This document shows, piece after piece, positions 50,451 to 64,000 of a stretch of DNA of 64,000 nucleotides. Origin of the DNA: an uncultured beta proteobacterium (GTDB taxonomy: Bacteria > Pseudomonadota > Gammaproteobacteria > Burkholderiales > Burkholderiaceae); assembly GCA_963838695.1 (NCBI GenBank), contig CAWIRZ010000048.1, positions 49,053 to 113,052 on the forward strand, in the 5' to 3' direction. Each line of letters begins with the position of its first letter. The stretch's first letter is position 1. The notes beneath the pieces were generated by a model. It ran no database searches. It saw only the letters and a program-made list of their open reading frames with translations, and was not told the DNA's origin. Made by a program: the position numbers and the translations under genes.

Positions 50451-50492
50451 TCGGCGAGGAGCGATCGCCTAGGCCGAGCCCGCTGTGGGGGC

Positions 50493-50565
50493 AGCCGCGG
50501 AACTCGGTCCCGGAAGTGAGTCCCAGGTCAGCCGCGGACGTGCAGCCGCGGAAGTTAGCCGCGGA
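50493..50565. repeat. four dispersed copies of AGCCGCGGA within 73 nt
   Basis: Copies at 50493, 50530, 50544 and 50557, in the convergent intergenic region. Each contains the palindrome CCGCGG. Confidence 0.7.
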
Positions 50566-50580
50566 AGTCGGCTGCATGAG

Positions 50581-51594
50581 TCAGCTGCGATCGCTCGCAT
50601 CGCTGTCGCCAACATGCGAGCGATGAGCGTCGATGCATTTTTCTTCTTCCACTTGAACGGTCGTGTGTTCGATCCTGAACGTCGCGGCCAAGCGACGCTG
50701 AACCGCGGCGACGACTTCATGCGAAGCCACACCGGGCGTCGGGTGGACATGCAAGGTGACCATATGCCGCTCCGCGGTAATCGACCATGCATGAATATGA
50801 TGCGCATCGCGCACTTCAGCCACGTTGCGCTCGAGATCGGCTTTGATGTCGGCCAGGCTGACGCCTTCCGGCGTGCCCTCGAGCAGGATATGCGCTGACG
50901 ATTTGACGATGCCCCAGGCACTTTTGAGAACGATCACCGCGACGAAGATCGAGAGAAGCGGATCGATGGGCGTCCAACCGGTGAATAGGATTACACATGC
51001 TGCGGCGATGGCCGCCACGGAGCCGAGCATATCGCCGAGCACATGCAGCCACGCGCCGCGCAGATTGAGGTTCTCGCGGTTGCCGCCGTGCAGGGCCGCG
51101 AACGCCGCGATGTTCGCCGCGAGCCCTGCCAACGCGACGATCAACATGGTCTTACCGAGCACGGGCACCGGTTCCGCGAACCGCCGCACGGCTTCGATCA
51201 CGATCCACGCGGCGATGACGAACAGCGCGCATCCATTGACGAATGCGGCGAGGATTTCGAGCCGCTTGTAGCCATACGAGAGCCTTGCGGTGGCGGGGCG
51301 CTTCCCATAGTGAATGGCGGCCCAGCTGAAACCGAGCGCGGCCGTGTCGCTGATCATATGGCCGGCATCGGCCAGTAGCGCCAGGGAGCCGGACAGCAAG
51401 CCGCCTACGATCTCCACCACCATGAACGTTGCGATGACCACGAACGCCAAACCGATGCGGCGCTGATCGGTTACGCCATGCAGATGGTCGTGCCCGGCGT
51501 GGCTGTGGTCGTGTCCCGCATGGTCGTGGGTGTGGCCGGCGTGGCCGTGGCCGTGGTCGTGGCTATGATCGTGATCGTGATGAGAATGCGCCAT
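50581..51594 (-). CDS. cation diffusion facilitator (CzcD/ZitB-type) metal exporter with His-rich N-terminus
   Basis: 'MAHSHHDHDHSHDHGHGHAGHTHDHAGHDHSHAGHDHLHG', then 'SGSLALLADAGHMISD' and 'HVLGDMLGS'. Confidence 0.9.
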   Translation of the reverse strand: MAHSHHDHDHSHDHGHGHAGHTHDHAGHDHSHAGHDHLHGVTDQRRIGLAFVVIATFMVVEIVGGLLSGSLALLADAGHMISDTAALGFSWAAIHYGKRPATARLSYGYKRLEILAAFVNGCALFVIAAWIVIEAVRRFAEPVPVLGKTMLIVALAGLAANIAAFAALHGGNRENLNLRGAWLHVLGDMLGSVAAIAAACVILFTGWTPIDPLLSIFVAVIVLKSAWGIVKSSAHILLEGTPEGVSLADIKADLERNVAEVRDAHHIHAWSITAERHMVTLHVHPTPGVASHEVVAAVQRRLAATFRIEHTTVQVEEEKCIDAHRSHVGDSDASDRS

Positions 51595-51773
51595 ATGTCT
51601 TGGTCCGAGGGGAATTCAAAACGCTGGACATGACGGAAAGGTCATGCCGCGTGCGTCCCCGGAGCATAACGCGGAAGTGATTCCCTTTCGTCGGTAAGGC
51701 GATATGAAAGCTGCGCGAGCGCACTCCACGCAAGCGCTCGCCTGACGCCGATCGGCAAACCGACGGTGGCCAG

Positions 51774-51847
51774 GAAGTTGCCCACAGATTCTGTTCGCAA
51801 GGCTGTGGGCAACGCTTGGGTAAATGCGATAAGCCGCTGAAACCGTT
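51774..51847 (+). repeat. copy A of a roughly 70-bp element containing an 11-bp-arm inverted repeat
   Basis: GTTGCCCACAG (51777-87) pairs with CTGTGGGCAAC (51803-13). It is followed by gcttgggtaaatgcgataagccgctgaaaccgtt. Closely matches copy B. Confidence 0.8.
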
Positions 51848-51941
51848 TGGTTTTCGCGCGCCGCTCTCGGTGCATGCATTCGGGCGATCCTGGCGCTGGA
51901 ACCCGGCGATGCCGATCGGAAAAACGCCCGAGACGCCCGAA

Positions 51942-52385
51942 TCAGGACTTCGCAGGGCGACCGGTCTTGACGGTTTCCACCGCCGAAACGGCGGCGAGCA
52001 GGCGTTTCAGGGGGGCGGCCTCCAACAACAACAGGCCGGCGCGCAGCAACTCGCTCTTCTTCGTCGACACGCCCGCGTCGAGGCATTTCTGCTTCAGCGC
52101 GGCGATCTTCTCGTAGTCGGATCTCGGCATCGTAAAGCTGTCGCGCACAACCTTTTCTTTTTTCGCGCGCTTGGTCTTGCCTTCTTTTACAACACTCGCG
52201 GGTGCCGCTTCGACGATCGCAGCAGCACGCTTTTGTTTCGGTGCCTTGGCCGGTGCGGGTGGGGTGGTCTCGGCAGCAACCACGGGCGCGATCGCCTGCT
52301 CCACTTCTACGGGCATTTTGCCGTTTGCGCTCTTCGGCACGCGCACCGCCTTTTTGGCTGCCTTCTTGACGATCGGTTCGCTCAC
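51942..52385 (-). CDS. hypothetical basic protein (Lys/Ala/Pro-rich N-half, conserved-looking C-half)
   Basis: GTG start preceded by GGAGAGG. 'VKKAAKKAVRVPK...APAKAPKQKRAAA', then 'VRDSFTMPRSDYEKIAALKQKCLDAGVSTKKSELLRAGLLLL'. Confidence 0.65.
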   Translation of the reverse strand: MSEPIVKKAAKKAVRVPKSANGKMPVEVEQAIAPVVAAETTPPAPAKAPKQKRAAAIVEAAPASVVKEGKTKRAKKEKVVRDSFTMPRSDYEKIAALKQKCLDAGVSTKKSELLRAGLLLLEAAPLKRLLAAVSAVETVKTGRPAKS

Positions 52386-52476
52386 GGTTCCTCTCCAGTT
52401 TATAAACGGTATAAACAGTATATACCGTTTATGGTGCGTCTCGGCTATACGAGGGAGCGCGCTGGACGCCTCGAAG

Positions 52477-52550
52477 AAAGTTGCCCACAGAAACTGTTCG
52501 CAAGGTTGTGGGCAACTGATGGGTAATTGCGGTAAGCGGCTGAAATCGTT
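52477..52550 (+). repeat. copy B of the roughly 70-bp element
   Basis: aaagttgcccacagaaactgttcgcaaggttgtgggcaactgatgggtaattgcggtaagcggctgaaatcgtt, in the same orientation as copy A. Confidence 0.8.
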
Positions 52551-52620
52551 GAGCTTATAGGCCGCGCTCTCGATCTACGCACGGCGAGGATCTAACGATG
52601 CGAAATACGGCGGCTATCGC

Positions 52621-53292
52621 TTACGAACCGTTGACGCGACGGGCCTTTTTGGCTGCGTCGCTACTCTTGCCGGGGCGTGGTGGGCTTTTAGCAATCGATG
52701 CCGCACCGGTTATCTGCTCCATCCAAGATAGCGCGTCGATGTACGAGAGAAACTGCTGGAGGTACCCCGGCGATAGCGCTTGCATCAGCGATAGCGAGCG
52801 GTGCACAAGGCTGCTCGAATTGAGTGGTCCCGGGTTTCCAGGTACTTGCGCGAGCGATTGCCGTAGCTGCTTCTCGGTGCTCATTCTCGACCAGATTTCT
52901 CTGAAGTCGTCGAGCAACGGCAGTTCGGGATAGGGGGCCGACCGAGCGGTAGGGCGCTGAGTTGCCAATCCTTCGCCGCGCGCCAATGCATGCGCCTCCA
53001 GATACTCCACCAGTCCCGCAAGCGCACCCCGATCCGGCTTGCCTAGCGATTGCGCGCCGACCGAATCGTTAGGTTGCCGCGCTTGAAATGCGGCACGCTC
53101 GAGATCGCCCGCGTAAGCATCGAGCAGTTCGCCGAGCCTATTGTCCAGAGCCCGTCGCGCTGCTCCGCTGTGCGTGGCCGAGCGCCGCGCCAGTGCTTCG
53201 ATGAAATGGAAGCGGATGGGATCCATGCGGTCCGCGCCTTGCTCGCGCCATGCGTCGAGCATCGATCGGGCGCGCGTCGCGCCGTTACTCAT
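52621..53292 (-). CDS. uncharacterised soluble helical protein (I recall this family as DUF2894; needs an HMM check)
   Basis: Its ATG 53292 overlaps the upstream MotB-like gene by 8 nt. No TM segment and no catalytic motif recognised. Confidence 0.7.
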   Translation of the reverse strand: MSNGATRARSMLDAWREQGADRMDPIRFHFIEALARRSATHSGAARRALDNRLGELLDAYAGDLERAAFQARQPNDSVGAQSLGKPDRGALAGLVEYLEAHALARGEGLATQRPTARSAPYPELPLLDDFREIWSRMSTEKQLRQSLAQVPGNPGPLNSSSLVHRSLSLMQALSPGYLQQFLSYIDALSWMEQITGAASIAKSPPRPGKSSDAAKKARRVNGS

Positions 53293-53929
53293 GAGACACC
53301 GCTGTGGCCGATGGCTTCGGGATCGGCGCGATTTCGACGCGCCGATTCTTGGCACGCCCCGCGCTGTCGGCGTTCGAGCCCACCGGCTGCTGGGCGCCGA
53401 ACGCAGCCGCGAAGACCGACGAAGCAGGTACGCCCGCATCGATCAACGCACGGGTGACCGTCAGTGCGCGCTGGGCCGAGAGCTCCCAGTTATCGGCGAA
53501 TTGCTTGGTGCCGCCACGTACTTGGCGGTCGTCGGTGAAGCCGCTCACCATCAGGATTTCGTCGCGCGCCACTAGATACCGGGAGAGCGGCCCCGCCAAA
53601 CTCTTCAGCACGTCTCGGCCTTCGGGCTGCAACTGATCCGAGTTCAGCGCGAACAACACACTGCCGCTGATACCGATTCGGCCGTTGACCAGCGTTACCC
53701 GGCCCGCGGCCAGCGGGCCCGCCAACGCGTCTTCCAAAGCCTTGCGGCGCTGCGCTTCTTGGTGCCGCTGCTGGACCTCTTTCTCGAGCTTCGTCGAGAG
53801 TTCCAGTTGCGCGCCGATGACGCACACCAGGATCAGCATGAAAGCCCCCAGCAGCACCGACATCAAATCGCCGAACGCCGCCCAGATCGGCGTGACGTGC
53901 TCCACGCCGCCGTCGATTTCCTCGCTCAT
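53285..53929 (-). CDS. MotB/OmpA-like protein (single TM with conserved Asp, plus OmpA_C peptidoglycan-binding domain)
   Basis: 'PIWAAFGDLMSVLLGAFMLILV' is a MotB/ExbD-style TM segment with Asp21. 'GFTDDRQV...NWELSAQRALTVTRALIDAGV...GRAKNRRVEI' is the OmpA_C domain. Confidence 0.85.
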   Translation of the reverse strand: MSEEIDGGVEHVTPIWAAFGDLMSVLLGAFMLILVCVIGAQLELSTKLEKEVQQRHQEAQRRKALEDALAGPLAAGRVTLVNGRIGISGSVLFALNSDQLQPEGRDVLKSLAGPLSRYLVARDEILMVSGFTDDRQVRGGTKQFADNWELSAQRALTVTRALIDAGVPASSVFAAAFGAQQPVGSNADSAGRAKNRRVEIAPIPKPSATAVSHE

Positions 53930-56022
53930 GCCGCTGCGGCTCCAGCCGATGCCCGCGGGCCCGCGAGCTGTTGCAGATCTTCGATGATTTGTTTCTGCGA
54001 CATCATGCTGAGGTCGATGACTTCTCTCGCCTGCGCGACGTAGTAGGCGAGCTGCTCGTCGCTGCGCGCGAGCGACTTGTCGAGTGCCGCTTCGATACGC
54101 GTGAGATGCGTCACCAAAGCGTCGTTCGATTGGCCGAACAACTGGACGGCGGCACCGAATGCTTCGCCAAGGCTCGCGACTTCGACCGCGCTACCGGTCA
54201 CTTGCGCCGCGATCGCGCCGAGTTTTTCGGTTTCTGCGTCGACCCTCGCGGCGAATTGCGTGCCGACGCGCTCCAGCAGAGTGGCCGACGTGGCGACGAG
54301 CGCATCGACAGCCGATCGTTGTTCGGTACTGGCGAGGTTGACGGCATCGAGCAACGTTTCCAGCGTTGCCAACAAGCGGCTGCGTTCTTCAAGCATGGCG
54401 GTATCGCGCACCATGCTCTCGGAAAGTTTCTGTCGTAGTTCGGCGACGACTTCAGCCGCCGCCTTGGGCGCTTCCGATGCAGCTTGTACGAGTCGAGCGA
54501 TCTCGTCGATCGTCTCGCTGGCGCGCGCTTGCGTATCGGCGGAAATTTCACGTGCGGTCTGCGCGAGCACATTGCAGATGTCCTGCTGCCGGTCTGCCGT
54601 ACGCTTGCCTGCTGCGTCCCATTCGTTGCTCAGCGTAGCCGCCATTGAGCCGAGCGTTTCGGTCCAGGCCGCGAGCCGCTGCTCGTCGCGCGCAGCGAGT
54701 TCGGCCTGTAACTGCGCATGAGAGCGATCGACGTTTTGCAGCAGCGCAGCAGCGTGCTGCTCGAATGTGGCCGCGGCAGCTTGCAGGGCTTCGCGGTTGC
54801 GATCGGAAAGAGTCTCGCCGATCCTTTCTTGCTGCGATAGCGCCGCAGTCCACGCTTCCGACATATTGCCCGTGGTGACATCGAGGCGCGCCGCTACGTC
54901 TTGCAGCAGCTTGCCCGAGCGTTGTTCGAAAGTTTCGGTAAAGCCGGTGAGTGCGGTGTTCAACTGCCGGGCAAGCGCCTCGCTCGATTGACGGTGTTCC
55001 GTCAGCGCGTGGTTCCAGATGCCCGACACCGTCTGCGTCGCAGTCTGGAAACCATCCGAGAGCCCATCGAGTTGCCGCTCGACGGCTCGCGTGACAGCGT
55101 CGTGCAAAGAGGCTGTCTCTTGCGCGAGCCCGGCCATCGTCGCTTCCACGACCGGTTGCAGGGCGGCACCGGCTGCGCGGGCGCTGTCGGTCACGGTCTG
55201 CCTCAACGACTGTTCGACGGACGAAGCCAATCGAGAGTAAGCGGCCTCGACCCCGCGGTGAAACGCATCTTGGCTCGCCAGTTGCCGCTCGTTCGCGGCC
55301 ATGCTGTGTTGTTCGATCGTCGACATCATCGTTTGCAACCGATCGACGAGCGCGGGCATCGTTTGCGCCTGCTGCTGCAGGAGCTTAAGCATCTCCTCGC
55401 GCTGATAGGACTGCGAAAACACGCGCAATGTCGTGGCGATCTTCACGTCGAGGCGCTGCGCCGCTTCGATTCTTTCGCGCCGGCACAACGCGGAAAGCAG
55501 CCCGAGCATGGCGGACGTCGCCACGCCGGCGATCGAGGTACCGAATGCAAACCCCAGACCCTTGACGGGCGCAGCGAGCGATGCCCGGATCGCTTGCAGA
55601 TCCGTCGCGCTGTCGAGCGCCATGCCGGTGCCTCTCAAGGTGGCAGCCATGCCCAGCAGTGTGCCCAGCATTCCGAGCAAGACGAGCAATCCGACCAAGT
55701 AGGGGGTCAGCGCCGGCCCGGGCAAGGCCACGCGCTCGCCCTCGATGCGCAGACGCACCGCGTTGCGCAAGCTCACCGGCAGTGGATCGAGGCAAGCGGC
55801 CAGGCTGGGCGGCGCCGCGGACAGACCGTCGACGGTGCGCACCAAAGCGGCGGTAGCTTGGCTGTAGCGTCGAAGTTCGAGTGCGCCGGCTATGTAGCAA
55901 GCACCGACCAACAGCGTGACGGCTAGCGCGAGCGAGTTCGAGCCGACGTAGCCAACGCCGACCCAGCAGAGCGCGGCAAGGCCGGCCAAGAAAGCGACGA
56001 TGCTGATGAGATGTCTGGACAT
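53926..56022 (-). CDS. MotA/ExbB/TolQ-like channel protein with a roughly 470-aa helical tail (I recall this family as DUF802; needs an HMM check)
   Basis: 4 TM segments. The last pair, 'PYLVGLLVLLGMLGTLLGMAATL' and 'GLGFAFGTSIAGVATSAMLGLLSALC', resembles the MotA_ExbB core. The rest is Ala/Gln/Glu/Leu/Thr-rich helical repeats. Its stop overlaps the MotB-like start (ATGA). Confidence 0.8.
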   Translation of the reverse strand: MSRHLISIVAFLAGLAALCWVGVGYVGSNSLALAVTLLVGACYIAGALELRRYSQATAALVRTVDGLSAAPPSLAACLDPLPVSLRNAVRLRIEGERVALPGPALTPYLVGLLVLLGMLGTLLGMAATLRGTGMALDSATDLQAIRASLAAPVKGLGFAFGTSIAGVATSAMLGLLSALCRRERIEAAQRLDVKIATTLRVFSQSYQREEMLKLLQQQAQTMPALVDRLQTMMSTIEQHSMAANERQLASQDAFHRGVEAAYSRLASSVEQSLRQTVTDSARAAGAALQPVVEATMAGLAQETASLHDAVTRAVERQLDGLSDGFQTATQTVSGIWNHALTEHRQSSEALARQLNTALTGFTETFEQRSGKLLQDVAARLDVTTGNMSEAWTAALSQQERIGETLSDRNREALQAAAATFEQHAAALLQNVDRSHAQLQAELAARDEQRLAAWTETLGSMAATLSNEWDAAGKRTADRQQDICNVLAQTAREISADTQARASETIDEIARLVQAASEAPKAAAEVVAELRQKLSESMVRDTAMLEERSRLLATLETLLDAVNLASTEQRSAVDALVATSATLLERVGTQFAARVDAETEKLGAIAAQVTGSAVEVASLGEAFGAAVQLFGQSNDALVTHLTRIEAALDKSLARSDEQLAYYVAQAREVIDLSMMSQKQIIEDLQQLAGPRASAGAAAA

Positions 56023-56047
56023 AGTGCTCCAGTAATCCTGTATTCGG

Positions 56048-56791
56048 TTAGCGGGTGCGAAGGGCAGCGAGCAATCCTTCGACCGGTTGAAAACGAACTT
56101 CGAGTTCGGCGAGTAGCGCGCTTTGCATGTCTTTGCGGAACACGTCCAACCATGCACGCGGCGAGTGTTCCTGCACGGTGCCCGATGCTTCGGCATCGGC
56201 GAGTGCGGCCTGCTCGGCCTGGCGCAAACGCTCGAAATACTTGGCGAGCAACGCGGGGATGCCTGCCAGCAGGCTTTGCTCGCGCGGGGCCAACGCGCGT
56301 TCCATGACGGCATCCACCATGGCGAGCCGCGCCATTTCGGGCGTGCGGGCGGCGAGCGCGCCGCGCAGGCGCTCGCGCAGGTTGCCGACGGCCGTCTCCA
56401 TCTCGCGCTGCATGTACAGATAGCGCTGACGAAACACGGAATAATCGACCGAGGCATCCGCGGTGCTTTCCAGCGCGGGTGCCTGAGCCGGCCCGCGCTG
56501 TTTGAGTGCGGCGAACACGGTGTCGTCGGCGATGGCTTTCCTCAGCGCAGCACGCACGCGAGCGTACTCGCTCTCCACGGCGCGCGCGCTGGCGCGTGCG
56601 TCGGAGGCGACGACCGGTGCGTTGCCGTTCAGCGCGGAGGACAGCGTAATGGCGTCCGTCCAGTTGAGCCATTGGCTGAGCCGGTCGGAGAGCGCTTGTC
56701 GATCGTCGGGAACGTCGGCGCCGGTCAGACGCGCGAGCAGGCGAATTAGGGTCGGGCCGCTTAGGGCTGTGCGCTGAGGGGCTTCCACCAT
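56048..56791 (-). CDS. uncharacterised protein, first gene of the stator-like operon (I recall this family as DUF3348; needs an HMM check)
   Basis: 247-aa soluble helical protein. Lies 25 nt upstream of the MotA-like gene on the same strand. Confidence 0.7.
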   Translation of the reverse strand: MVEAPQRTALSGPTLIRLLARLTGADVPDDRQALSDRLSQWLNWTDAITLSSALNGNAPVVASDARASARAVESEYARVRAALRKAIADDTVFAALKQRGPAQAPALESTADASVDYSVFRQRYLYMQREMETAVGNLRERLRGALAARTPEMARLAMVDAVMERALAPREQSLLAGIPALLAKYFERLRQAEQAALADAEASGTVQEHSPRAWLDVFRKDMQSALLAELEVRFQPVEGLLAALRTR

Positions 56792-56880
56792 ACAACCAAA
56801 GTCAAAGAGGCAGCAGTTTACACTGCGCCGCGAGCGAGGTGGCCGGACGGCGTCCGATCGGGCTGAATTTGAGCGGATAG

Positions 56881-57287
56881 TTGGCGGTCTTCAAGACCAG
56901 GGTGTTCGCCCGCTGGGCCGACAAAGAAGGCGTAAGCGATTCGGCGTTGCTTGCGGCAATGGAGGAGATAAGCCGAGGGCGGATTGATGCGAACCTCGCG
57001 GTCATGTTTTCAAGGACCGTATGGGCATCGGCGGACGAGGGAAGAGCGGCGGGGTGCGTACGCTGCTGGGGTTGCGGGCAGGGGGCGAGCCATCTTCGGA
57101 CTATCGAGTGTCCCAGCCCGACGGAAGTACGCTGATTAACGCGGACGGCCTGCGGCAGCATCGCCCACCTCCACCGACGCCCAATACCACCTACGCGACG
57201 ACCGGAGCGCAAGCCGATTTCCAACCGCTGTCCGAGCGAACGGTGCCACCTCTATCTGCTGCCGGGGGGACGATGTTGTGTCATTAA
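56881..57287 (+). pseudogene. decayed RelE/ParE-superfamily toxin gene (several frameshifts)
   Basis: 'AVFKTRVFARWADKEGVSDSALLAAMEEISRGRIDANL' continues in a second frame as 'GHVFKDRMGIGGRGKSGGVRTLLGLRAGG...INADGLRQ'. This matches the layout of toxins of the 'FKTKxFxRWAxKE...GKSGGxRTL' type. No antitoxin ORF follows. Confidence 0.5.
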
Positions 57288-57516
57288 TCTTGACCAAAAC
57301 CTCAACGAACCGGCATAGCGAGAAAACCGGCAAACCGATTTTCTGATAGACCGTTCTGTTTTTAAAAAATCCTCGGTTTAATGCGCTCGACAATTCGCTT
57401 TCGGTGAGGTATAGCCGCGCTCTCCGTATCGGCGTGAGTGCCTATGGAATGCTGAAAATGGTACTTCCCCATAAAACGGAAAGAAGTTCACGGCCTGCGT
57501 TTTAGTCGTGCGACTG

Positions 57517-57544
57517 TTGACAAAAACACTGGAATCATTACAGT
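57517..57544 (+). promoter_or_regulatory. candidate sigma70 promoter
   Basis: TTGACA (57517-22), a 16-nt spacer, then TACAGT (57539-44). Lies about 110 nt upstream of the 27-codon ORF in an AT-rich intergenic region. Confidence 0.5.
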
Positions 57545-57587
57545 AACGCAAAACACTGATCGGAACGATATGTCGATTTGCCCGTAA

Positions 57588-57642
57588 AACGGCAAAAGCC
57601 GTTGCTCGCCGGTCTTTAGCGAGCATTCTTCAATCTTGTTTT
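57588..57642 (+). promoter_or_regulatory. structured 5' leader: two hairpins, the second followed by a U-rich tract
   Basis: AACGGC-aaaa-GCCGTT at 57588-603. TGCTCGC (57603-09) pairs with GCGAGCA (57619-25), followed by ttcttcaatcttgtttt. The SD AGGAGAG at 57644-50 comes directly after. Confidence 0.45.
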
Positions 57643-57654
57643 CAGGAGAGAGCT

Positions 57655-57738
57655 ATGTCCCAAACGACTCCGCAACAGCCTGTCATTGTGGTCAAACCGC
57701 GTAACCCGCGTCCTGTGCTGATTCCCGTTCACCTGTAG
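57655..57738 (+). CDS. 27-aa Pro-rich peptide MSQTTPQQPVIVVKPRNPRPVLIPVHL (candidate RiPP precursor, or a regulatory leader peptide)
   Basis: Not in the supplied ORF track because it is too short. ATG 57655 sits 4 nt after AGGAGAG, with a TAG stop at 57736-38. It lies directly upstream of three RRE-like/HDO genes on the same strand. Confidence 0.55.
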   Translation: MSQTTPQQPVIVVKPRNPRPVLIPVHL

Positions 57739-57763
57739 GAAATAGTAGGTTCCCGTGAAGGGC

Positions 57764-57791
57764 CGGAGCCATCTGAACAACGATGGCTCCG
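57764..57791 (+). promoter_or_regulatory. 10-bp perfect hairpin between the peptide ORF and the first enzyme gene
   Basis: CGGAGCCATC (57764-73), loop tgaacaac, GATGGCTCCG (57782-91). No U tract follows. Confidence 0.7.
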
Positions 57792-57802
57792 TGCATAGAT
57801 CA

Positions 57803-58816
57803 ATGCGGCCGGAGGAAAGCGTGGATCAAATTATCTCGGATTCCTGTAGATTCCGTTTGAATTCATCGGTTATCTCGAATATGCCGCTCGTCGTCAAAAC
57901 GGCAGCCGGTGACGAGTTTGAAATCGAGGCTGGCGCCATAACGGCGGACGAAACAGCCGGCCTGCTCGGCAGCCTTGCCGAAGACCGCGATGTCGACGAG
58001 ATCGCGGGCCTGCTTCCCACTCGATCGCGTGAGAACGTTCGCACGCTGATGGCCTACTTGGCGGCACACGGAATCGTTCGCCCCGTCGTGCCTTCGACGG
58101 GGAAAACCGGCCTCGATGCGCTGTTGGAAATCGAAGATTTGTCGAACCGATTGCTATACGATACGCTTTACCGAAACGAGTTCTGGGTCAACTGTTCGAA
58201 AGCCGCGAAGCGGGGTGACATCCCGGAGTCGGTCATTTACGGCATGGTCATCGAAAACTATCATTTTCTCTTCCGTGAAAGCTACTTCGATGCCCCGGTG
58301 CTGTCGTTTGTTTCGAATACGAACGTTCGCCTCGCGATGAATGCCTTTTTCGCCGAGGAGTATGGCCACGACGAGTTGCTTCTGAAATCGCTCAATCAAA
58401 TCGGCATCTCGCGAGAAGACTTGGCGCATACAGTGCCGTTGCCGCAGACTATGGCGCTATGCAACAGTCTGGCTTATTGGTCCCACAACGATCCGATATT
58501 TTTCTTCACGACGCTCGGCATCCTTGAAGGAAAGGATATCCGGCAGGATTCATTCCTCGACGCGTCGTACCGCGTCGGCATTGACCCCGATTTTCTGAAG
58601 CCGGTGAAGGCGCACTCCGACATTAATTTGAAGGGCGAGCACGGAAGCCTGACACGGAAGATTTTTTCACAAATCCCGGTGGTCGACGAAGAAACAATGC
58701 GCCGCTTGCGCGCGCAGACACATCTCTTTATCGAGCTATACGACGCTTTCTATTCGGCCGTCTGGCGACACTATTCGCACGCCGGCGAGTTGCTGCGGCA
58801 CATCGATCGCATCTGA
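57803..58816 (+). CDS. HDO-A: haem-oxygenase-like di-iron oxidase (iron-containing redox enzyme family) with a PqqD/RRE-like N-domain
   Basis: Ligand-type motifs 'IENYHF', 'AEEYGHDE', 'GILEGKD' and 'KAHSDINLKGEHG'. The N-domain 'ITADETAGLLGSLAEDRDVDEIAGLL...VRTLMAYLAAHGIV' is PqqD-like. The start is ATG 57803 or GTG 57821 (GGAGGA SD). The track start at 57755 would span the hairpin. Confidence 0.75.
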   Translation: MRPEESVDQIISDSCRFRLNSSVISNMPLVVKTAAGDEFEIEAGAITADETAGLLGSLAEDRDVDEIAGLLPTRSRENVRTLMAYLAAHGIVRPVVPSTGKTGLDALLEIEDLSNRLLYDTLYRNEFWVNCSKAAKRGDIPESVIYGMVIENYHFLFRESYFDAPVLSFVSNTNVRLAMNAFFAEEYGHDELLLKSLNQIGISREDLAHTVPLPQTMALCNSLAYWSHNDPIFFFTTLGILEGKDIRQDSFLDASYRVGIDPDFLKPVKAHSDINLKGEHGSLTRKIFSQIPVVDEETMRRLRAQTHLFIELYDAFYSAVWRHYSHAGELLRHIDRI

Positions 58817-58839
58817 CCATCCTTTGTCGTGAGGGCACC

Positions 58840-59847
58840 ATGCAGGCACCGAGCACGAACGACCTTTTCACTTTTCCGACCTTGCGCACCGGCGTCGAGG
58901 TCGAGAACACGGACGACGGGATTGCACTTATCTACGGCAACCAGTCGTGCGATATTTTCGCCGACGGCGAAACGAAAGAGCCGCTGCGCGCGCTGATCGA
59001 CTCCATGAGAAACGGCCACGCAACCGTCGACGACCTGCGCGCACGGCATCGATCGGTCGCGGCCTCGATTGATCCGCTATTGGAGGAACTGGACCGGCTC
59101 GGACTCGTCACCGAGTCGAAATTCGAGTGGCCCACCGATGTGCGCTCGGGACCGGAATTCAACGCACGCATTCGAGACCTGGCGGTCCGGGCCATGCGCT
59201 CACGCTGCAATTCGCGCCTATTCTCGATGATGGAAGACGGGTCGCTGACGCGCGAAATGCTCATCGGCTACGCGCTCGAATATTACTACTTGGTGCGCGA
59301 GGCGCCCGGACTCATCGCGCCGGCAATCTCGCAAGCCGACAGCCGGAGGAACCGGCAGGCCATTCAGCGCTTTCTCGTATCGGAGCTCGATCACGACTTG
59401 ATGTTGGCCGAGAGCCTGAAGGCGGCGGGCATCGACACATCGGACGGCAAGCTAGACTACCTGGTGCCGCTTCCCTCCACGTTCGCGCTGTGTGCAGCGC
59501 TTGGCGTATACGCGAAACAGCATCCGCTATCGTTCAAGAGCATTCTCTTCCTCTTCGAAATTCCCAGCATACGTTTTAACGAAACGCTCACCGCGCACTG
59601 CGAGAAGGTGGGGCTGCCGAAGGCTTTTTCGACACCGTTGCTCACTCATGCCAACATCAACGATTCGCTTGACCACGAAGACGTCACGGCCGAGCTGCTG
59701 AGCGACTTGACGGCCATCTCGCGTGAAGAGCAGCTCGTTGTCGAAAAGAACGTCGTGCTCGCCATCGAAACGATGGTCCAGCAGGAAGAAGAGATCATCG
59801 ACTATTACGGGCGGCCGAACGCTGTCATTCCCCGCATTTTTCAGTAA
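58840..59847 (+). CDS. HDO-B: paralogous RRE-like plus haem-oxygenase-like di-iron oxidase
   Basis: Motifs 'ALEYYYL', 'VSELDHDL', 'FLFEIPS' and 'LTHANINDSLDHED'. N-domain 'ETKEPLRALIDSMRNGHATVDDLRARH...IDPLLEELDRLGLV'. Confidence 0.8.
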   Translation: MQAPSTNDLFTFPTLRTGVEVENTDDGIALIYGNQSCDIFADGETKEPLRALIDSMRNGHATVDDLRARHRSVAASIDPLLEELDRLGLVTESKFEWPTDVRSGPEFNARIRDLAVRAMRSRCNSRLFSMMEDGSLTREMLIGYALEYYYLVREAPGLIAPAISQADSRRNRQAIQRFLVSELDHDLMLAESLKAAGIDTSDGKLDYLVPLPSTFALCAALGVYAKQHPLSFKSILFLFEIPSIRFNETLTAHCEKVGLPKAFSTPLLTHANINDSLDHEDVTAELLSDLTAISREEQLVVEKNVVLAIETMVQQEEEIIDYYGRPNAVIPRIFQ

Positions 59848-59869
59848 CTTCGAAGACAGAGGGCAATCC

Positions 59870-61360
59870 ATGGAAGCCTGGCAGATTCGCCGTTACGACA
59901 TGCCGTGCCTGGTCCCGTTATCGGCTCAGCTCGATGAAGATGGCCGGACCGTCGTGCTGACCGCGGAATCGAACGAATACGAGATCGCGTCCAACGAAGT
60001 CGATGGTCAGCAACTGCTCGAAAGTCTCCTTGCGATGACGGATCCCAACGCGCAGATCTGGGTGGATGTCAATGACGGTCACGCCTTGCCTTGGCAAGCG
60101 TCGCTGGTGCAGCAGCTCGACGAGCTGTCGCTGGTGCAGAGCAAGCCTGCCGATCAAGACATTCTGGACGAGCGCGCCGCGCTCTGCGAACGATGGGTTC
60201 AAGATGCGGAGCAAACGCTGGCGGGCATGGCGAAAGCACAAACCGAAGCCTATCGAAGCGCTATTTCCGCCTTCATCCAAATCCTCGATACCCCGCCGCC
60301 GCAAGTGGATGCATGCTCGGTCGCGGACGTTCCCCGCATCGGGGGCCGCGATAACTTCGCCCTGCAGACGTTCTTTCTCCAGAAACTCTACGTCGAAGAG
60401 AACCTGCCGGTCGTGGTGTCGCTATGGCGACAGGTTTTGCATCGGACCGGGTCTCGCCTCGGCATGACGTTCGGCGATTCAGCCTCGCCGCCTCGGGCGG
60501 CTGCGACGAGTATCGGACTCTATTGCACGGCGCACATCCAAGCCTATCTCATGTGCCTCGTCGATCTCGTCCGTCTTGCCACGACCGACGATTCCGCTCG
60601 TCGTATCTACGCAGACGCGCCGCACCTCAGTGTCGAAACCGGCCTCAATTTTATGCGGCGCGCCGAGCAATTCGCGCTCTCGTGCCTCGCTCGACTTGGC
60701 CAGTCGCGCTATGTCGCGATGATCAACGACGAGTCCACCCGATTTGGCCCGCTCGTGCAGGGACTCTTCATCGAGCAATATCACGTGACGCAGCGCTTCG
60801 TGGAAATCATCGCGCCGCTCATGACCAAGCGTACCCGCTCCGCGATCAAGCAACGCGTCTATCGTTACTTTCAGGAGGAGCTTGGGCACGAGGCATTCGA
60901 ACACGCCACGTGCGTCGCGCTCGGCGTTACCCCCCTGCGACTCGACGCGGCATTGCCGCTACCGCTTTTTCAGGCTTACGTCGACGCATTCACCGTCCTT
61001 GGCCGTTACGACGCGATTGGCTACATGAGCTCGATCATGGTCACGGAAGGGATGCTCGGCGTCGACAATCCGGTCCACCATCGCCTTGAAGCGCTCGCGT
61101 CTTCGCTCGTCGACTATCAGCGAGTCGCGAAGCGACACGACGACCTGAACGTCGAATTGAATCACGCCTCGTTGTCGCGATTGTTCTTCGAAGAAGTGCG
61201 CGCCATCTCACCTGAGGCGCAGCAGCGCGCGCTGGCAAATTTGGCATTTCTCATCGAGCTGAACTTCCGCGCGATGGACCAGGTCGCTGATTTTTACGGA
61301 GCCCAACGCGAACTGACCACGTGTTCTCTCTCGACCTATGCGACAGCTTTCGCGCCATGA
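59870..61360 (+). CDS. HDO-C: third paralog, longer (RRE-like N-domain, helical insert, HDO core)
   Basis: ATG 59870 is preceded by AGAGGG. Motifs 'FIEQYHV', 'FQEELGHEA', 'MVTEGML' and 'KRHDDLNVELNHAS'. N-domain 'VDGQQLLESLLAMTDPNAQIW...LVQQLDELSLV'. Confidence 0.8.
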   Translation: MEAWQIRRYDMPCLVPLSAQLDEDGRTVVLTAESNEYEIASNEVDGQQLLESLLAMTDPNAQIWVDVNDGHALPWQASLVQQLDELSLVQSKPADQDILDERAALCERWVQDAEQTLAGMAKAQTEAYRSAISAFIQILDTPPPQVDACSVADVPRIGGRDNFALQTFFLQKLYVEENLPVVVSLWRQVLHRTGSRLGMTFGDSASPPRAAATSIGLYCTAHIQAYLMCLVDLVRLATTDDSARRIYADAPHLSVETGLNFMRRAEQFALSCLARLGQSRYVAMINDESTRFGPLVQGLFIEQYHVTQRFVEIIAPLMTKRTRSAIKQRVYRYFQEELGHEAFEHATCVALGVTPLRLDAALPLPLFQAYVDAFTVLGRYDAIGYMSSIMVTEGMLGVDNPVHHRLEALASSLVDYQRVAKRHDDLNVELNHASLSRLFFEEVRAISPEAQQRALANLAFLIELNFRAMDQVADFYGAQRELTTCSLSTYATAFAP

Positions 61361-62631
61361 GAGATCAAGCGACGGAGGCCGACGCGTACGAGCTTTTCGT
61401 TAACCCGGCTTGGTCGAACATCGTTCGGCTAGCCGGTCTCGACATGCAACCGGTACGTGCGTCCGGTAGCTGGCTGTGCCTGCGCGACGGACGGCAAATG
61501 CTCGACTTCGTGTCCGGCTACGGTGCCATGCCGCTCGGGCATCATCCCTCGGCACTGCTCGAACGTTTGGGCCGCGACTTACTCGGCCCATTGCCGAATC
61601 TCAATCCGCTCGGCATCTGTGCTGATGCCGGCGTGTTGGCCGGGCAGCTCATCGAGCTTGCCGGCATACCTGACGGCAAGGTGTTTTTTGGCAACGGAGG
61701 CGTCGATGCAGTCGAAGCGGCGCTGAAGTTTGCAATGGTGCATACGCGGCGCTCCGGCATCGTGACCATTGCGGGCGGCTTTCACGGCCTGTCGTTGACG
61801 GCGACATGGCTGGCGGGTTCCGATTTCTGGCGTCGAGATTTACCGGCTGCACCCGCTCAGTTCCGGCAGGTGCCGTTCGGCGATACCGAAGCGATCCGTG
61901 TCATGCTCGAGCGCGAGGAAGTGGCCGCGGTCCTACTCGAACCCGTTCAGGGAACCGCCGGCGCGCGCGCCTGGAAACAGTCCGACTTGAAAAGGATTGC
62001 CGACTTGTGCGACGAGCACGGAACGGTGCTGATTTTTGACGAGATCCTTTGTGGCTTGGGGCGAACGGGAGACTGGTTCGCCTACCAGACGCTCGACGTC
62101 CCCGCGCCGCAGATGGTGCTCGTATCGAAGGGCCTGACAGGCGGCGTTTTTCCGGTTTCCGCCGTCTTGATGCAAGACGTCATCTATCAATCGATGTTCG
62201 CGCGAGACAATGCCGCCAAAATTCATGGCTCTACGTTTGGTGGCAACCGACTTGGCATGCGATGCGGTTCGCATGTGCTTTCGCTCCTGCGCGAGTACGA
62301 CGTTTGCTCGAACGCGCGAAGGCAGGGCGACCGCCTGCGTAGCGGCATCGAGCGGATAGGTTTGCCGGCTGGGCTTGTCTGCGAAGGGGTGGGCCTCGTG
62401 CTGTCGATTCGTGCCACGGACGACTGCGCGCAGCGCTTCGGCGACGACGTCGCCGCTCGGCTTTGGCATGCTTTGCTCGCGCAAAACATCGTCACGATTC
62501 CCGCAGCACACGATCCGATGTCGGTGCGGCTGCTGCCGCCGTTGAACGTAACGTCGGGGGAAATCGACCTGTTTCTGGCTGCATTCGATAACGCCGTTCA
62601 CGAATTGACGATCGGCCAGGAGGCGAGATGA
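61357..62631 (+). CDS. class-III PLP-dependent aminotransferase
   Basis: 'NGGVDAVEAALKFA', 'FDEILCGLGRTGDWFA', 'VSKGLTGGVFPVSA' (PLP Lys) and 'HGSTFGGN'. Its ATG overlaps the HDO-C stop (ATGA). Confidence 0.85.
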   Translation: MRDQATEADAYELFVNPAWSNIVRLAGLDMQPVRASGSWLCLRDGRQMLDFVSGYGAMPLGHHPSALLERLGRDLLGPLPNLNPLGICADAGVLAGQLIELAGIPDGKVFFGNGGVDAVEAALKFAMVHTRRSGIVTIAGGFHGLSLTATWLAGSDFWRRDLPAAPAQFRQVPFGDTEAIRVMLEREEVAAVLLEPVQGTAGARAWKQSDLKRIADLCDEHGTVLIFDEILCGLGRTGDWFAYQTLDVPAPQMVLVSKGLTGGVFPVSAVLMQDVIYQSMFARDNAAKIHGSTFGGNRLGMRCGSHVLSLLREYDVCSNARRQGDRLRSGIERIGLPAGLVCEGVGLVLSIRATDDCAQRFGDDVAARLWHALLAQNIVTIPAAHDPMSVRLLPPLNVTSGEIDLFLAAFDNAVHELTIGQEAR

Positions 62632-63542
62632 AGGTAAGACATATTTTGTTGGCCACGCTTGTCGCGGCAATCTGGGGCCTCAGTTTCGTCGTGGTAGCGA
62701 TCGGCTTGCGGGGGTGCCCGCCACTGCTTCTGGCAGCCCTGCGTTTCGTGATCGTATTTGCATTTGGCGTCATGTTGTTTCCGCGCCCCACGTTGCCTTG
62801 GAAACTTTACCTACGAGCAGGTCTTTGCCTGGGCGTCATCCAGTTTGCGAGCTTGTTTTCCGCTATCCACCTGGGCGTTCCGGCGGGCATCGTATCGGTG
62901 CTCGCACAGATGCAGGTATTCATCACGCTGCTGTTGTCGGGCGTCGTCTTGAAGGAATCGTCTTCCCCAACGCAGCAGAGGATGATGGCGCTTGCCCTGC
63001 TGGGTGTGCTATTGCTAGGCTACGCACGGTATCACGCTACGCTTCCGCTCGCCCCGGTCGGGCTCGCGCTCCTCGGAGCGGCTGGCTTCGCCTGGGGAAA
63101 TATCGAATTGAAGCGTGCGGGGAAAGTCGACATGTTCGCTTTCACGGTTTGGATGAGCATCGTCCCACCGATACCGTTGCTGTTTCTTTCCATGCTGGTC
63201 GAAGGAGGGCCGACGGGATTGTTCGACGCGCTGAAGCACCTGTCCTGGACCAGCGTATTTGCTCTGTTCTTCCTTGCGATAATCGGTACGCTGTTTTCGC
63301 TCGGAGCCTGGGGGCGGCTGATGAGCCTATATCCGGTTGCGGTGGTCGCGCCGTTCTCCCTGGTGAGCCCAGTTTTCGGTATGTTGGGTGGGTACTTTAT
63401 ACTGAACGAGCACTATGACACGGTGAGCGTTATCGCTTCGGGCTTGATCGTCTTCGCACTCGCCGGGAATACTTATGCGTCGAGGATCAATCAGCGTAAC
63501 GTCAGCGCTCGACGGTCGGCGGCCTCAACTCTGAAGAGCTAA
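62628..63542 (+). CDS. EamA/DMT-family transporter (likely exporter)
   Basis: 10-TM-type pattern. 'LLATLVAAIWGLSFVVV' and a duplicated EamA-like half. Its ATG overlaps the aminotransferase stop (ATGA). Confidence 0.85.
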   Translation: MKVRHILLATLVAAIWGLSFVVVAIGLRGCPPLLLAALRFVIVFAFGVMLFPRPTLPWKLYLRAGLCLGVIQFASLFSAIHLGVPAGIVSVLAQMQVFITLLLSGVVLKESSSPTQQRMMALALLGVLLLGYARYHATLPLAPVGLALLGAAGFAWGNIELKRAGKVDMFAFTVWMSIVPPIPLLFLSMLVEGGPTGLFDALKHLSWTSVFALFFLAIIGTLFSLGAWGRLMSLYPVAVVAPFSLVSPVFGMLGGYFILNEHYDTVSVIASGLIVFALAGNTYASRINQRNVSARRSAASTLKS

Positions 63543-63545
63543 AAA

Positions 63546-64000
63546 ATGACGATCGACGCATTACGCATATCGAGCGATAAAAGCGAACTGGATATCGATG
63601 TCATTCACGCTTTTCTCCGCGATCATGCTGCGTGGGCGAAGGGTATTCCCAGGGAAACCCTCGAGCGTGCGATCGAAGGGTCGCTCTGCTTCGGCGCGTA
63701 TCTGGGCAAGCGCCAGATCGGCTTTGCTCGCGTCGTGACGGATATGGCCACGTTCGGCTATCTCTGTGACGTATTCGTCCTGCCGGAATACCGATCGCGC
63801 GGTTATGCGGCCGCGCTGATGCGTCACGTCTTCGACGCTGATCTGCTCAAAGGGCTCCGCAGGATCGTTCTCGTCACGACGGATGCACACGGTGTCTACC
63901 GCCCGCATGGGTTCAACGCGCTGGCCAACCCCGAGCGGTATATGGAGCTGCATCGGCCCGACGTCTACGCGTCGTCCAGCTGTGTTGAGCTTGAGCGTCC
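63546..64000 (+). CDS. GNAT-family N-acetyltransferase (3' end outside the window)
   Basis: My own translation gives 'MTIDALRISSDKSELDIDVIHAFL...IGFARVVTDMATFGYLCDVFVLPEYRSRGYAAALMRHV...'. It is absent from the track because no stop lies inside the window. It starts 3 nt after the EamA stop. Confidence 0.75.
   Translation, partial: MTIDALRISSDKSELDIDVIHAFLRDHAAWAKGIPRETLERAIEGSLCFGAYLGKRQIGFARVVTDMATFGYLCDVFVLPEYRSRGYAAALMRHVFDADLLKGLRRIVLVTTDAHGVYRPHGFNALANPERYMELHRPDVYASSSCVELER

Follow-up and report, generated by a model that had tools for sequence, protein, structure and literature searches.

What does a bacterium make with three paralogous oxidases, an aminotransferase, an exporter, and an acetyltransferase that are all encoded behind an open reading frame (ORF) of 27 codons? 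The question is raised by the 3′ end of a 64,000-nucleotide stretch of DNA, here called the window, from an uncultured betaproteobacterium of the family Burkholderiaceae (GenBank assembly GCA_963838695.1, contig CAWIRZ010000048.1, positions 49,053 to 113,052). From 57.5 kb to the end of the window all coding sequence lies on the plus strand, in an operon that comprises a small ORF, a hairpin, the genes of three haem-oxygenase-like dimetal oxidases (HDO-A, HDO-B, and HDO-C), and genes for a class-III pyridoxal phosphate (PLP)-dependent aminotransferase, an EamA-family exporter, and a GNAT N-acetyltransferase. ORF analysis and Pfam matches confirm this content and gene order, which an earlier note on the same DNA had described. 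We consider it likely that the small ORF encodes the substrate of the three HDOs, whose N-terminal domains resemble the recognition element (RRE) in systems for ribosomally made peptides that are modified after translation (RiPPs), in a so far undescribed kind of RiPP-type pathway. Any particular chemistry for the trio is put forward with far less assurance.

The small ORF (57655 to 57738, plus strand) encodes a candidate precursor peptide of 27 amino acids (aa), MSQTTPQQPVIVVKPRNPRPVLIPVHL, and has AGGAGA 5 nt upstream, the near-perfect Shine-Dalgarno sequence that had been ascribed to it. The peptide consists of a variable N terminus, a beta-strand-like VIVVK, a basic and Pro-rich linker, and a C-terminal His-Leu. 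When one genome of each species was scanned for HDO-A homologues, 62 related loci were obtained from at least eight phyla. They come from Paraburkholderia, Burkholderia, Chromobacterium, Sphingomonas, Lysobacteraceae, and Dyella, from further genera and groups (Pseudomonas, Photorhabdus, Klebsiella, Chimaeribacter, Vibrio, Enterovibrio, and Legionellales), and from representatives of other phyla (Chloroflexi, Actinomycetota, Pyrinomonadaceae of the Acidobacteria, Pedobacter of the Bacteroidetes, and metagenome-assembled genomes [MAGs] of Eremiobacterota/Vulcanimicrobiota). Every one of the 62 loci has a small plus-strand ORF upstream of the HDO genes that ends in ...[L/I/V/M][P/A]-x-His-Leu-stop, with the C-terminal His-Leu invariant throughout; the conservation of this ORF in homologous clusters, on which the earlier note had staked its reading, is complete among these loci. 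The peptides come in two forms, a short one of 19 to 48 aa (such as MKIKIRPKTTRPVLVAVHL from a Chloroflexi MAG or the Pseudomonas peptide ...KKIVIKAKSDRPILMAAHL) and a long one of ~60 aa (such as ...DLYINTGTLGGKHFLV.V....G.PTLIAIHL), and in both, hydrophobic residues alternate in a strand-like stretch located 10 to 14 residues before the C terminus.

Nucleotide differences indicate what is being conserved. Between P. diazotrophica and the window, the last 17 codons differ at two first, no second, and ten third codon positions, and across loci the His is specified by two codons (CAC and CAT), the Leu by six, and the end of the ORF by all three stop codons. Given this third-position bias and the varied His, Leu, and stop codons, selection acts on the protein level. 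Judging from the aligned loci, the small ORF is a real gene, conserved under protein-level selection far beyond chance. RiPP clusters are recognized by just such an arrangement, in which a short encoded precursor lies next to, and is conserved with, candidate modifying enzymes. Neither the window peptide, the long-type peptides, nor the HDOs belong to a specific Pfam or NCBIfam family, and the system is therefore uncurated.

All three oxidase genes lie on the plus strand: HDO-A (57821 to 58816; 331 aa) has an RRE-like N-domain of about residues 1 to 95 followed by a haem-oxygenase-like dimetal oxidase domain, its paralogue HDO-B (58840 to 59847; 335 aa) has a homologous N-domain with an invariant P13-x2-R16-x-G and an HDO domain, and HDO-C (59870 to 61360; 496 aa) has an RRE-like N-domain at residues 1 to 92, a helical linker at 96 to 285, and an HDO domain at 294 to 476. 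The HDO-A ORF opens at 57755, and its likely start is the GTG at 57821 behind GGAGGA, preferred because the resulting length of 331 aa matches that of the homologues. The three genes occur in the order A-B-C in 58 of the 62 loci, two of the four exceptions being truncated contigs (3.9 and 5.0 kb). In a 90%-identity protein collection, 332 relatives of HDO-A were detectable, and a hidden Markov model search of 1.84 billion representatives returned 81 clusters at E ≤ 1e-30 and 370 at E ≤ 1e-10. NCBI names for these HDOs are "iron-containing redox enzyme family protein" or "hypothetical protein."

The haem-oxygenase-like nature proposed for the C-terminal halves was borne out by matches to PF14518 for HDO-A (E = 2e-9) and HDO-C (E = 6e-4), with HDO-B just under the cut-off (E = 1.3e-6; 28.7 bits, where 28.9 are required). 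AlphaFold2 models of HDO-A and HDO-C reached predicted local distance difference test (pLDDT) scores of 88.4 and 86.5, respectively. Foldseek matched the HDO-A model to 3dde, CADD, BesC, UndA, PqqC, and TenA, with target-normalized TM-scores of 0.60 to 0.77 for 3dde, CADD, BesC, and UndA, and the HDO-C model to 3dde, HrmI, SznF, CADD, and PqqC; PolF was also among the matches of their C-terminal bundles. According to these models, the catalytic domains of HDO-A and HDO-C have the seven-helix haem-oxygenase-like fold, and paralogy together with the near-cut-off PF14518 match points to the same fold in HDO-B. Seven residues of HDO-A (E145, H148, E180, H183, E236, H265, and H274) are kept in no fewer than 61 of the 63 sequences, while the conserved positions are E147, E182, H185, E240, H270, and H279 in HDO-B and E337, H340, E393, H423, and H432 in HDO-C. 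Each paralogue has at least three His and at least three Glu residues at ≥95% conservation, which are putative metal ligands. The solved sequence closest to the HDO-A catalytic domain is MboA (E = 7.7e-5 over ~150 residues).

Several observations concern variants of these enzymes. Four metagenomic proteins of ~690 to 705 aa (P0267, P0282, P0301, and P0307) hold an HDO-A-like and an HDO-B-like half in one polypeptide, and these natural fusions suggest that HDO-A and HDO-B act as a complex. In HDO-C of the Chromobacterium phragmitis type (P0134 to P0136), ligand motifs are lost (EELGHE becomes ELAREV and MVTEG becomes AFECG) and the RHDDLN..LNH region is scrambled; by sequence, these look like degenerate, possibly noncatalytic HDO-C paralogues. 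A fourth, more distant HDO homologue is encoded on the minus strand ~1.2 kb upstream of the peptide gene in Burkholderia stagnalis (L035, 8088 to 8828) and Burkholderia sp. SRS-46 (L060, 7951 to 8691).

The feature that would tie the oxidases to a peptide is their N-terminal domain, which the earlier note had called PqqD-like in all three. In the AlphaFold2 model of HDO-A, this domain is made of strands at residues 10 to 13, 15 to 20, 23 to 27, and 32 to 35, followed by helices at 42 to 54, 58 to 64, and 70 to 82, and in that of HDO-C it is made of strands at 12 to 14, 18 to 21, 27 to 32, and 35 to 40, followed by helices at 46 to 55, 62 to 68, and 74 to 85. The block is modeled in both proteins at a pLDDT of 82 to 90, with four short strands ahead of three helices. 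Under the strict definition of the Mitchell laboratory, an RRE is a winged-helix domain with three beta-strands and then three alpha-helices, from N to C terminus (PMC12710340). The models of HDO-A and HDO-C show this RRE order of strands and helices, as had been predicted for an RRE or winged-helix fold. The N-domains are also homologous to one another (by hhalign, 97.4% and E = 1.5e-11 for A versus B, 96.7% for B versus C, and 95.8% for A versus C), so that the N-domain of HDO-B would be RRE-like by its homology to the other two.

Resemblance to known RREs by sequence is weak but leans in the same direction. Searched against the PDB, the HDO-A N-domain profile matched a MarR-type winged helix (0.0018) and, weakly, the RRE regions of PaaA (0.017), PbtF (0.083), and LynD (0.76). 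Aligned by hhalign to genuine PqqD, using a PqqD profile of low diversity (effective sequence number [Neff] of 1.6) built from Enterobacterales homologues, HDO-B gave 73% (P = 3e-5) and HDO-A 5%, in register (P = 0.008); merged N-domain profiles aligned in register at a probability of 17 to 19%. The invariant PxFRxGV of HDO-B aligns with PAFRRGY of PqqD. Since the models show RRE topology and these domains escape detection by Pfam's PqqD model, we describe the N-domains as RRE-like by their modeled fold and, as far as sequence tells, outside PF05402: the PqqD-like character claimed for each HDO is backed by the fold in the A and C models, extends to HDO-B by homology, and finds no clear support in sequence as family membership. 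We rejected an N-domain of the FlcD/SznF type, which is an all-helical "superhelical linker," whereas here strands precede helices; HDO-C has a FlcD/SznF-like helical linker too (residues 96 to 285), after its RRE-like domain. Between the peptide gene and HDO-A, loci L056, L057, L058, L061, and L062 (Bacteroidetes, Eremiobacterota-type, and one alphaproteobacterial MAG) encode a thiamine pyrophosphate (TPP)-dependent enzyme. HDO-A in these TPP-type loci is ~230 to 270 aa long and has no RRE-like N-domain, while HDO-B and HDO-C retain theirs.

From these parts a pathway can be proposed. Conservation marks the 27-aa peptide as a ribosomally made precursor, whose VIVVK strand, 10 to 14 residues from the C terminus, would dock on the RRE-like N-domains, a role that their fold supports. 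Three dimetal (probably diiron) O2-activating domains would then act successively on the C-terminal His-Leu. The free carboxylate of Leu27, possibly together with the imidazole of His26, would hold the peptide end in place at the dimetal site, and this would account for the need of a stop codon directly after Leu. A carbonyl in the oxidized product might, in this lineage, be converted to an amine by the class-III aminotransferase, and a small product might be released either through oxidative cleavage or by the action of a housekeeping or host peptidase. GNAT may acetylate the product or protect the producer from it, and EamA would export the end product.

A number of points weigh against this interpretation. 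Beyond a conserved peptide that adjoins RRE-like HDOs, each element of it is inferred. The N-domain of HDO-B is assigned through its homology to those of HDO-A and HDO-C, single-sequence Pfam scans for PF05402 were essentially negative (1 of 31 HDO-A N-domains, at E = 0.18, and 0 of 34 HDO-B N-domains), and hhalign gave no match of the HDO-C N-domain to genuine PqqD. Foldseek was run with whole models, in which the catalytic domain dominates the matches. The missing N-domain of HDO-A in TPP-type loci indicates that docking is not required by every enzyme. HDO-B has Tyr at the position of HDO-A H148, and the assignment of E-H-E-H-(D/E)-H as ligands is only putative. Finally, this cluster has no protease gene to free a small product, and EamA and major facilitator superfamily (MFS) transporters would be unfit for a 27-mer, so the release step must be assumed. 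Even so, the His-Leu-stop ORF in all 62 loci, the co-inherited trio, and the RRE order in the models support the RiPP-type pathway that the earlier note had proposed. With somewhat more reserve, we favor regarding the system as the founding member of a RiPP class or peptide-derived family, defined by a trio of RRE-fused HDOs as maturases and by an invariant His-Leu precursor, spread horizontally over at least eight phyla, and performing a C-terminal oxidation that has no counterpart among known RiPP enzymes.

Known systems resemble parts of this arrangement. PQQ biosynthesis also starts from a very short ribosomal precursor and pairs an RRE-type domain with an enzyme of haem-oxygenase-like fold (PqqD with PqqC, and the natural fusion PqqCD), and both PqqC and PqqCD are among the Foldseek matches of the HDO models. 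However, PqqC is metal free and acts on a released small molecule, PqqCD carries its RRE at the C terminus rather than the N terminus, and the pathway needs the radical-SAM enzyme PqqE, PqqB, and a PqqA with E-x3-Y, none of which is found here. PQQ biosynthesis itself was rejected, since the window peptide has neither Glu nor Tyr and Pfam and NCBIfam scans found no radical-SAM or PqqB family in the operon.

A precedent for the chemistry is MboA (PDB 9ypi) of mangotoxin biosynthesis, which desaturates the C-terminal residue of a Leu-Ala-Arg tripeptide so that an alkyne results (Badding et al., JACS 2026, from the Chang laboratory; PMC13185094), so that an HDO acting on a C-terminal peptide residue has precedent. 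The likeness lies in an HDO that oxidizes the side chain of a C-terminal residue and in a cluster that gives an exported, amino-acid-like antimetabolite. MboA differs in being a single HDO of 250 aa without an N-terminal docking domain, compared with three HDOs here, in using a tripeptide made by ATP-grasp ligases instead of a gene-encoded peptide, and in its need for the reductase MboB; the window has neither reductase nor ligase. With MboA similarity remote and partial, and neither MboB nor the two ATP-grasp ligases encoded in the window, we rejected a mangotoxin (mbo)-type cluster.

Ribosomal peptides have met a haem-oxygenase-like protein before in VarO of the thiovarsolin pathway, for which dehydrogenation of one residue in the ribosomally made peptide has been proposed and whose cluster contains an ATP-grasp ligase and an MFS transporter (RiPPER, bioRxiv 10.1101/494286; NAR 2019). 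A March 2026 review of HDOs cites VarO as the only haem-oxygenase-like protein for ribosomal peptides. VarO is an accessory tailoring enzyme in a class defined by YcaO and TfuA, with no RRE fusion reported; unlike VarO, the HDOs here are the only candidate maturases. Daptides, the multinuclear nonhaem iron-dependent oxidative enzyme (MNIO) systems of TglH and ApyH, and mycofactocin share with the pathway proposed here a chemistry directed at the C-terminal residue or residues of a ribosomal peptide. Their oxidizing enzymes are MNIO/DUF692 proteins, radical-SAM enzymes, or dehydrogenases, not HDOs. In daptides, a class-III aminotransferase aminates a carbonyl made at the peptide C terminus, and the 3-thiaglutamate and mycofactocin pathways free a small molecule from the peptide end. 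A daptide cluster was rejected because the daptide aminotransferase model NF041821 scored 166 bits against a cut-off of 450 and daptide partner genes are lacking, and a pearlin cluster was rejected because the window has no PEARL gene.

Downstream of HDO-C, the window encodes the PLP aminotransferase (61357 to 62631; PF00202, 4e-65), the EamA-family (drug/metabolite transporter) exporter (62628 to 63542; PF00892, 6e-20), and the GNAT N-acetyltransferase (63546 to 64000; Acetyltransf_1, PF00583, 1e-13), all on the plus strand. The window ends ~10 nt before the GNAT stop codon; on metagenomic contig L001, which carries an identical EamA, GNAT is 154 aa long and is the last gene of the operon, with opposite-strand genes beyond. 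Tight junctions number three rather than the four described earlier: the aminotransferase overlaps HDO-C and EamA overlaps the aminotransferase by ATGA, and EamA and GNAT are 3 nt apart, while HDO-B and HDO-C are separated by 22 nt and HDO-A and HDO-B by 23 nt, each gap with a Shine-Dalgarno-like site. A Pfam scan agrees with the earlier statement that the cluster has no radical-SAM, YcaO, LanB/LanM, MNIO, nonribosomal peptide synthetase, or polyketide synthase gene. Against NCBIfam, the aminotransferase best matches models of the PigE and ArgD types without reaching the cut-off of any, and EamA scores 158 bits with NF008523 (O-acetylserine/cysteine exporter), also below the cut-off.

These accessory genes vary among lineages. 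The aminotransferase is found in 34 of 36 short-peptide loci versus 5 of 26 long-peptide loci. EamA is confined to the closest relatives, and other lineages have MFS, ABC-2, or C39-ABC exporters. Gammaproteobacterial loci run from the peptide gene through HDO-A, -B, and -C to an aminotransferase, an ATP-grasp enzyme resembling amino acid ligases, an MFS transporter, and GNAT, and an AsnC regulator is encoded upstream; the aminotransferase and EamA are both found in the P. phymatum group, some long-type loci have an aldehyde dehydrogenase or GMC oxidoreductase downstream, and one Chloroflexi locus has an ABC-2 exporter. In a proteobacterial MAG (L063, 13664 to 17555), HlyD and a C39-peptidase ATP-binding cassette (ABC) transporter directly follow HDO-C, and the peptide (..KTGVAAGPNELLPVHL) has a Gly/Ala-rich stretch ahead of the core. 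C39-peptidase ABC exporters are the usual device for exporting leader-bearing peptides, and the product of this lineage may be exported as a cleaved peptide. On gene content, the core of the system is the peptide and HDO-A, -B, and -C, to which the aminotransferase, GNAT, ATP-grasp enzyme, TPP enzyme, aldehyde dehydrogenase, GMC oxidoreductase, and exporters are lineage-specific additions whose common theme is carbonyl or amino-acid-like chemistry and export.

The spacer between the peptide gene and HDO-A (83 nt) contains a GC-rich stem-loop of 10 bp without a T-run (57764 to 57791, plus strand). This hairpin, noted earlier, is real, the intergenic fold having a z-score of −2.7, and GC-rich hairpins of 8 to 14 bp with unrelated sequences occupy the same position in most short-peptide loci across genera. 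A terminator scan did not call it a terminator; its role is probably transcript processing or attenuation that sets, and raises, the ratio of precursor to enzyme transcript. Other proposed control elements fared less well. The sigma-70-like promoter match TTGACA-N16-TACAGT (57517 to 57544, plus strand; 10 of 12 matches) is present once, as had been claimed. It is weak evidence for a promoter, being at chance level (~0.6 such sites are expected from shuffles), and its −35 and −10 hexamers are not kept in the two closest relatives (L002 and L003). The "structured leader" that had been placed behind it is no more stable than shuffled sequences (z = −0.63). Two inverted repeats in the 5′ leader (57578 to 57624, plus strand), namely, TTGCC-N8-GGCAA at 57578 to 57595 (TTGCCCGTAAAACGGCAA) and GCTCGC-N9-GCGAGC at 57604 to 57624, are kept in the loci of Paraburkholderia silvatlantica and P. 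silviterrae and, from their sequences, may be an operator or regulator binding site or small hairpins. MocR-type GntR-aminotransferase regulators are encoded upstream in related loci.

Other roles for the peptide and its oxidases can be imagined, and the one that survives best, though we hold it to be unlikely, is that the peptide gives rise to a redox cofactor by the logic of PQQ and mycofactocin, with His-Leu cross-linked or oxidized by the HDOs, excised, and used inside the cell. For both PQQ and mycofactocin, an RRE protein handles a very short peptide of which a few residues become the cofactor, and PqqC, a Foldseek match, has the same fold. Furthermore, the 21 long-peptide loci without an aminotransferase show no exporter among their annotated genes, and in some of them the trio is followed by an aldehyde dehydrogenase or GMC oxidoreductase that could use a cofactor. 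However, the window cluster and most short-type loci have an exporter (EamA, MFS, ABC-2, or C39-ABC), GNAT and the gammaproteobacterial ATP-grasp ligase better fit clusters for secreted antimetabolites, and the patchy, island-like distribution is unlike that of a housekeeping cofactor.

We give still less credence to the idea that the small protein is not a substrate and serves instead as a carrier or scaffold, holding an amino acid on its C terminus as LysW and pearlins do, or as a small structural subunit of an HDO complex; the oxidases would in that case work on an amino acid that is free or appended to the carrier. The invariance of a free C-terminal carboxylate would suit a carrier, as would the ATP-grasp ligase of the gammaproteobacterial loci and the example of the LysW system, whose class-III aminotransferase works on a carrier-bound substrate (the LysJ model reaches 147 bits here, far below its cut-off). 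Since only ~9 of 62 loci have a ligase, and the window lacks a PEARL or LysX-type gene, such a carrier would be without a loading enzyme in most clusters, and no carrier hydrolase is present either. Least probable of all, by a little, is a pathway in which the HDOs act on a free amino acid (Leu, His, Lys, or Arg, for instance), an amino acid antimetabolite is finished by the aminotransferase, GNAT, and exporter, and the small ORF is merely a regulatory upstream ORF or leader peptide: the substrates of characterized HDOs are indeed mostly small molecules or amino acids in free form (PMC13108848; PMC13185094), the aminotransferase, GNAT, EamA/MFS, and ATP-grasp genes are typical of amino acid antimetabolite clusters, and a hairpin lies 3′ of the small ORF, but the His-Leu and strand motif kept at the amino acid level across eight phyla despite DNA divergence is hard to reconcile with a regulatory leader, regulatory codons do not form a run in the ORF, a T-tract is missing from the hairpin, and a peptide-binding type of domain on each of three enzymes would be hard to explain.

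The surroundings of the window cluster suggest how its owner came by it. G+C content is 52 to 60% within the cluster (57000 to 64000) versus 62 to 68% upstream (50000 to 57000), and the identical EamA-GNAT end adjoins different downstream genes on two metagenomic contigs. The lower G+C content and the differing downstream genes suggest that the cluster is a horizontally acquired, mobile island. Directly upstream, DUF802 and DUF3348 genes occupy 53926 to 56791 on the minus strand, without an evident link to the cluster.

Returning to the proposed RiPP-type pathway, its parts (RiPP logic, RRE domains, HDO enzymes, and RiPP chemistry directed at the C terminus) are already known, and it is their combination, as read from these loci, that we did not find described. 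A search of full-text literature, with subscription-only papers outside its reach, found no description of RRE-HDO fusions or His-Leu-tailed precursors, in line with the earlier note, which was not aware of a described RiPP class matured by such fusions. HDO fusions are likewise not mentioned in the 2020 and 2025 RRE surveys, as far as their text and the supplements covered go; since the 2025 survey contains many unnamed fusions, an RRE-HDO fusion may sit unremarked in its data set.

The HDO family is growing fast, and nearly all of its known chemistry takes place on free amino acids and small molecules, while it is the family of the maturase that defines a RiPP class. If the proposed pathway is true, RiPP biosynthesis would gain a new maturase family and probably a new C-terminal oxidative chemistry as well. 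A trio of PF14518 proteins together with a short ORF ending in His-Leu-stop provides a handle for genome mining, and the compact cluster of ~6.5 kb makes heterologous expression feasible. The aminotransferase, amino acid ligase, GNAT, and small-molecule exporters hint at an exported, possibly antimetabolite-like product, and among the bacteria that would make it are plant- and insect-associated Paraburkholderia, Chromobacterium, Pseudomonas, and Photorhabdus.

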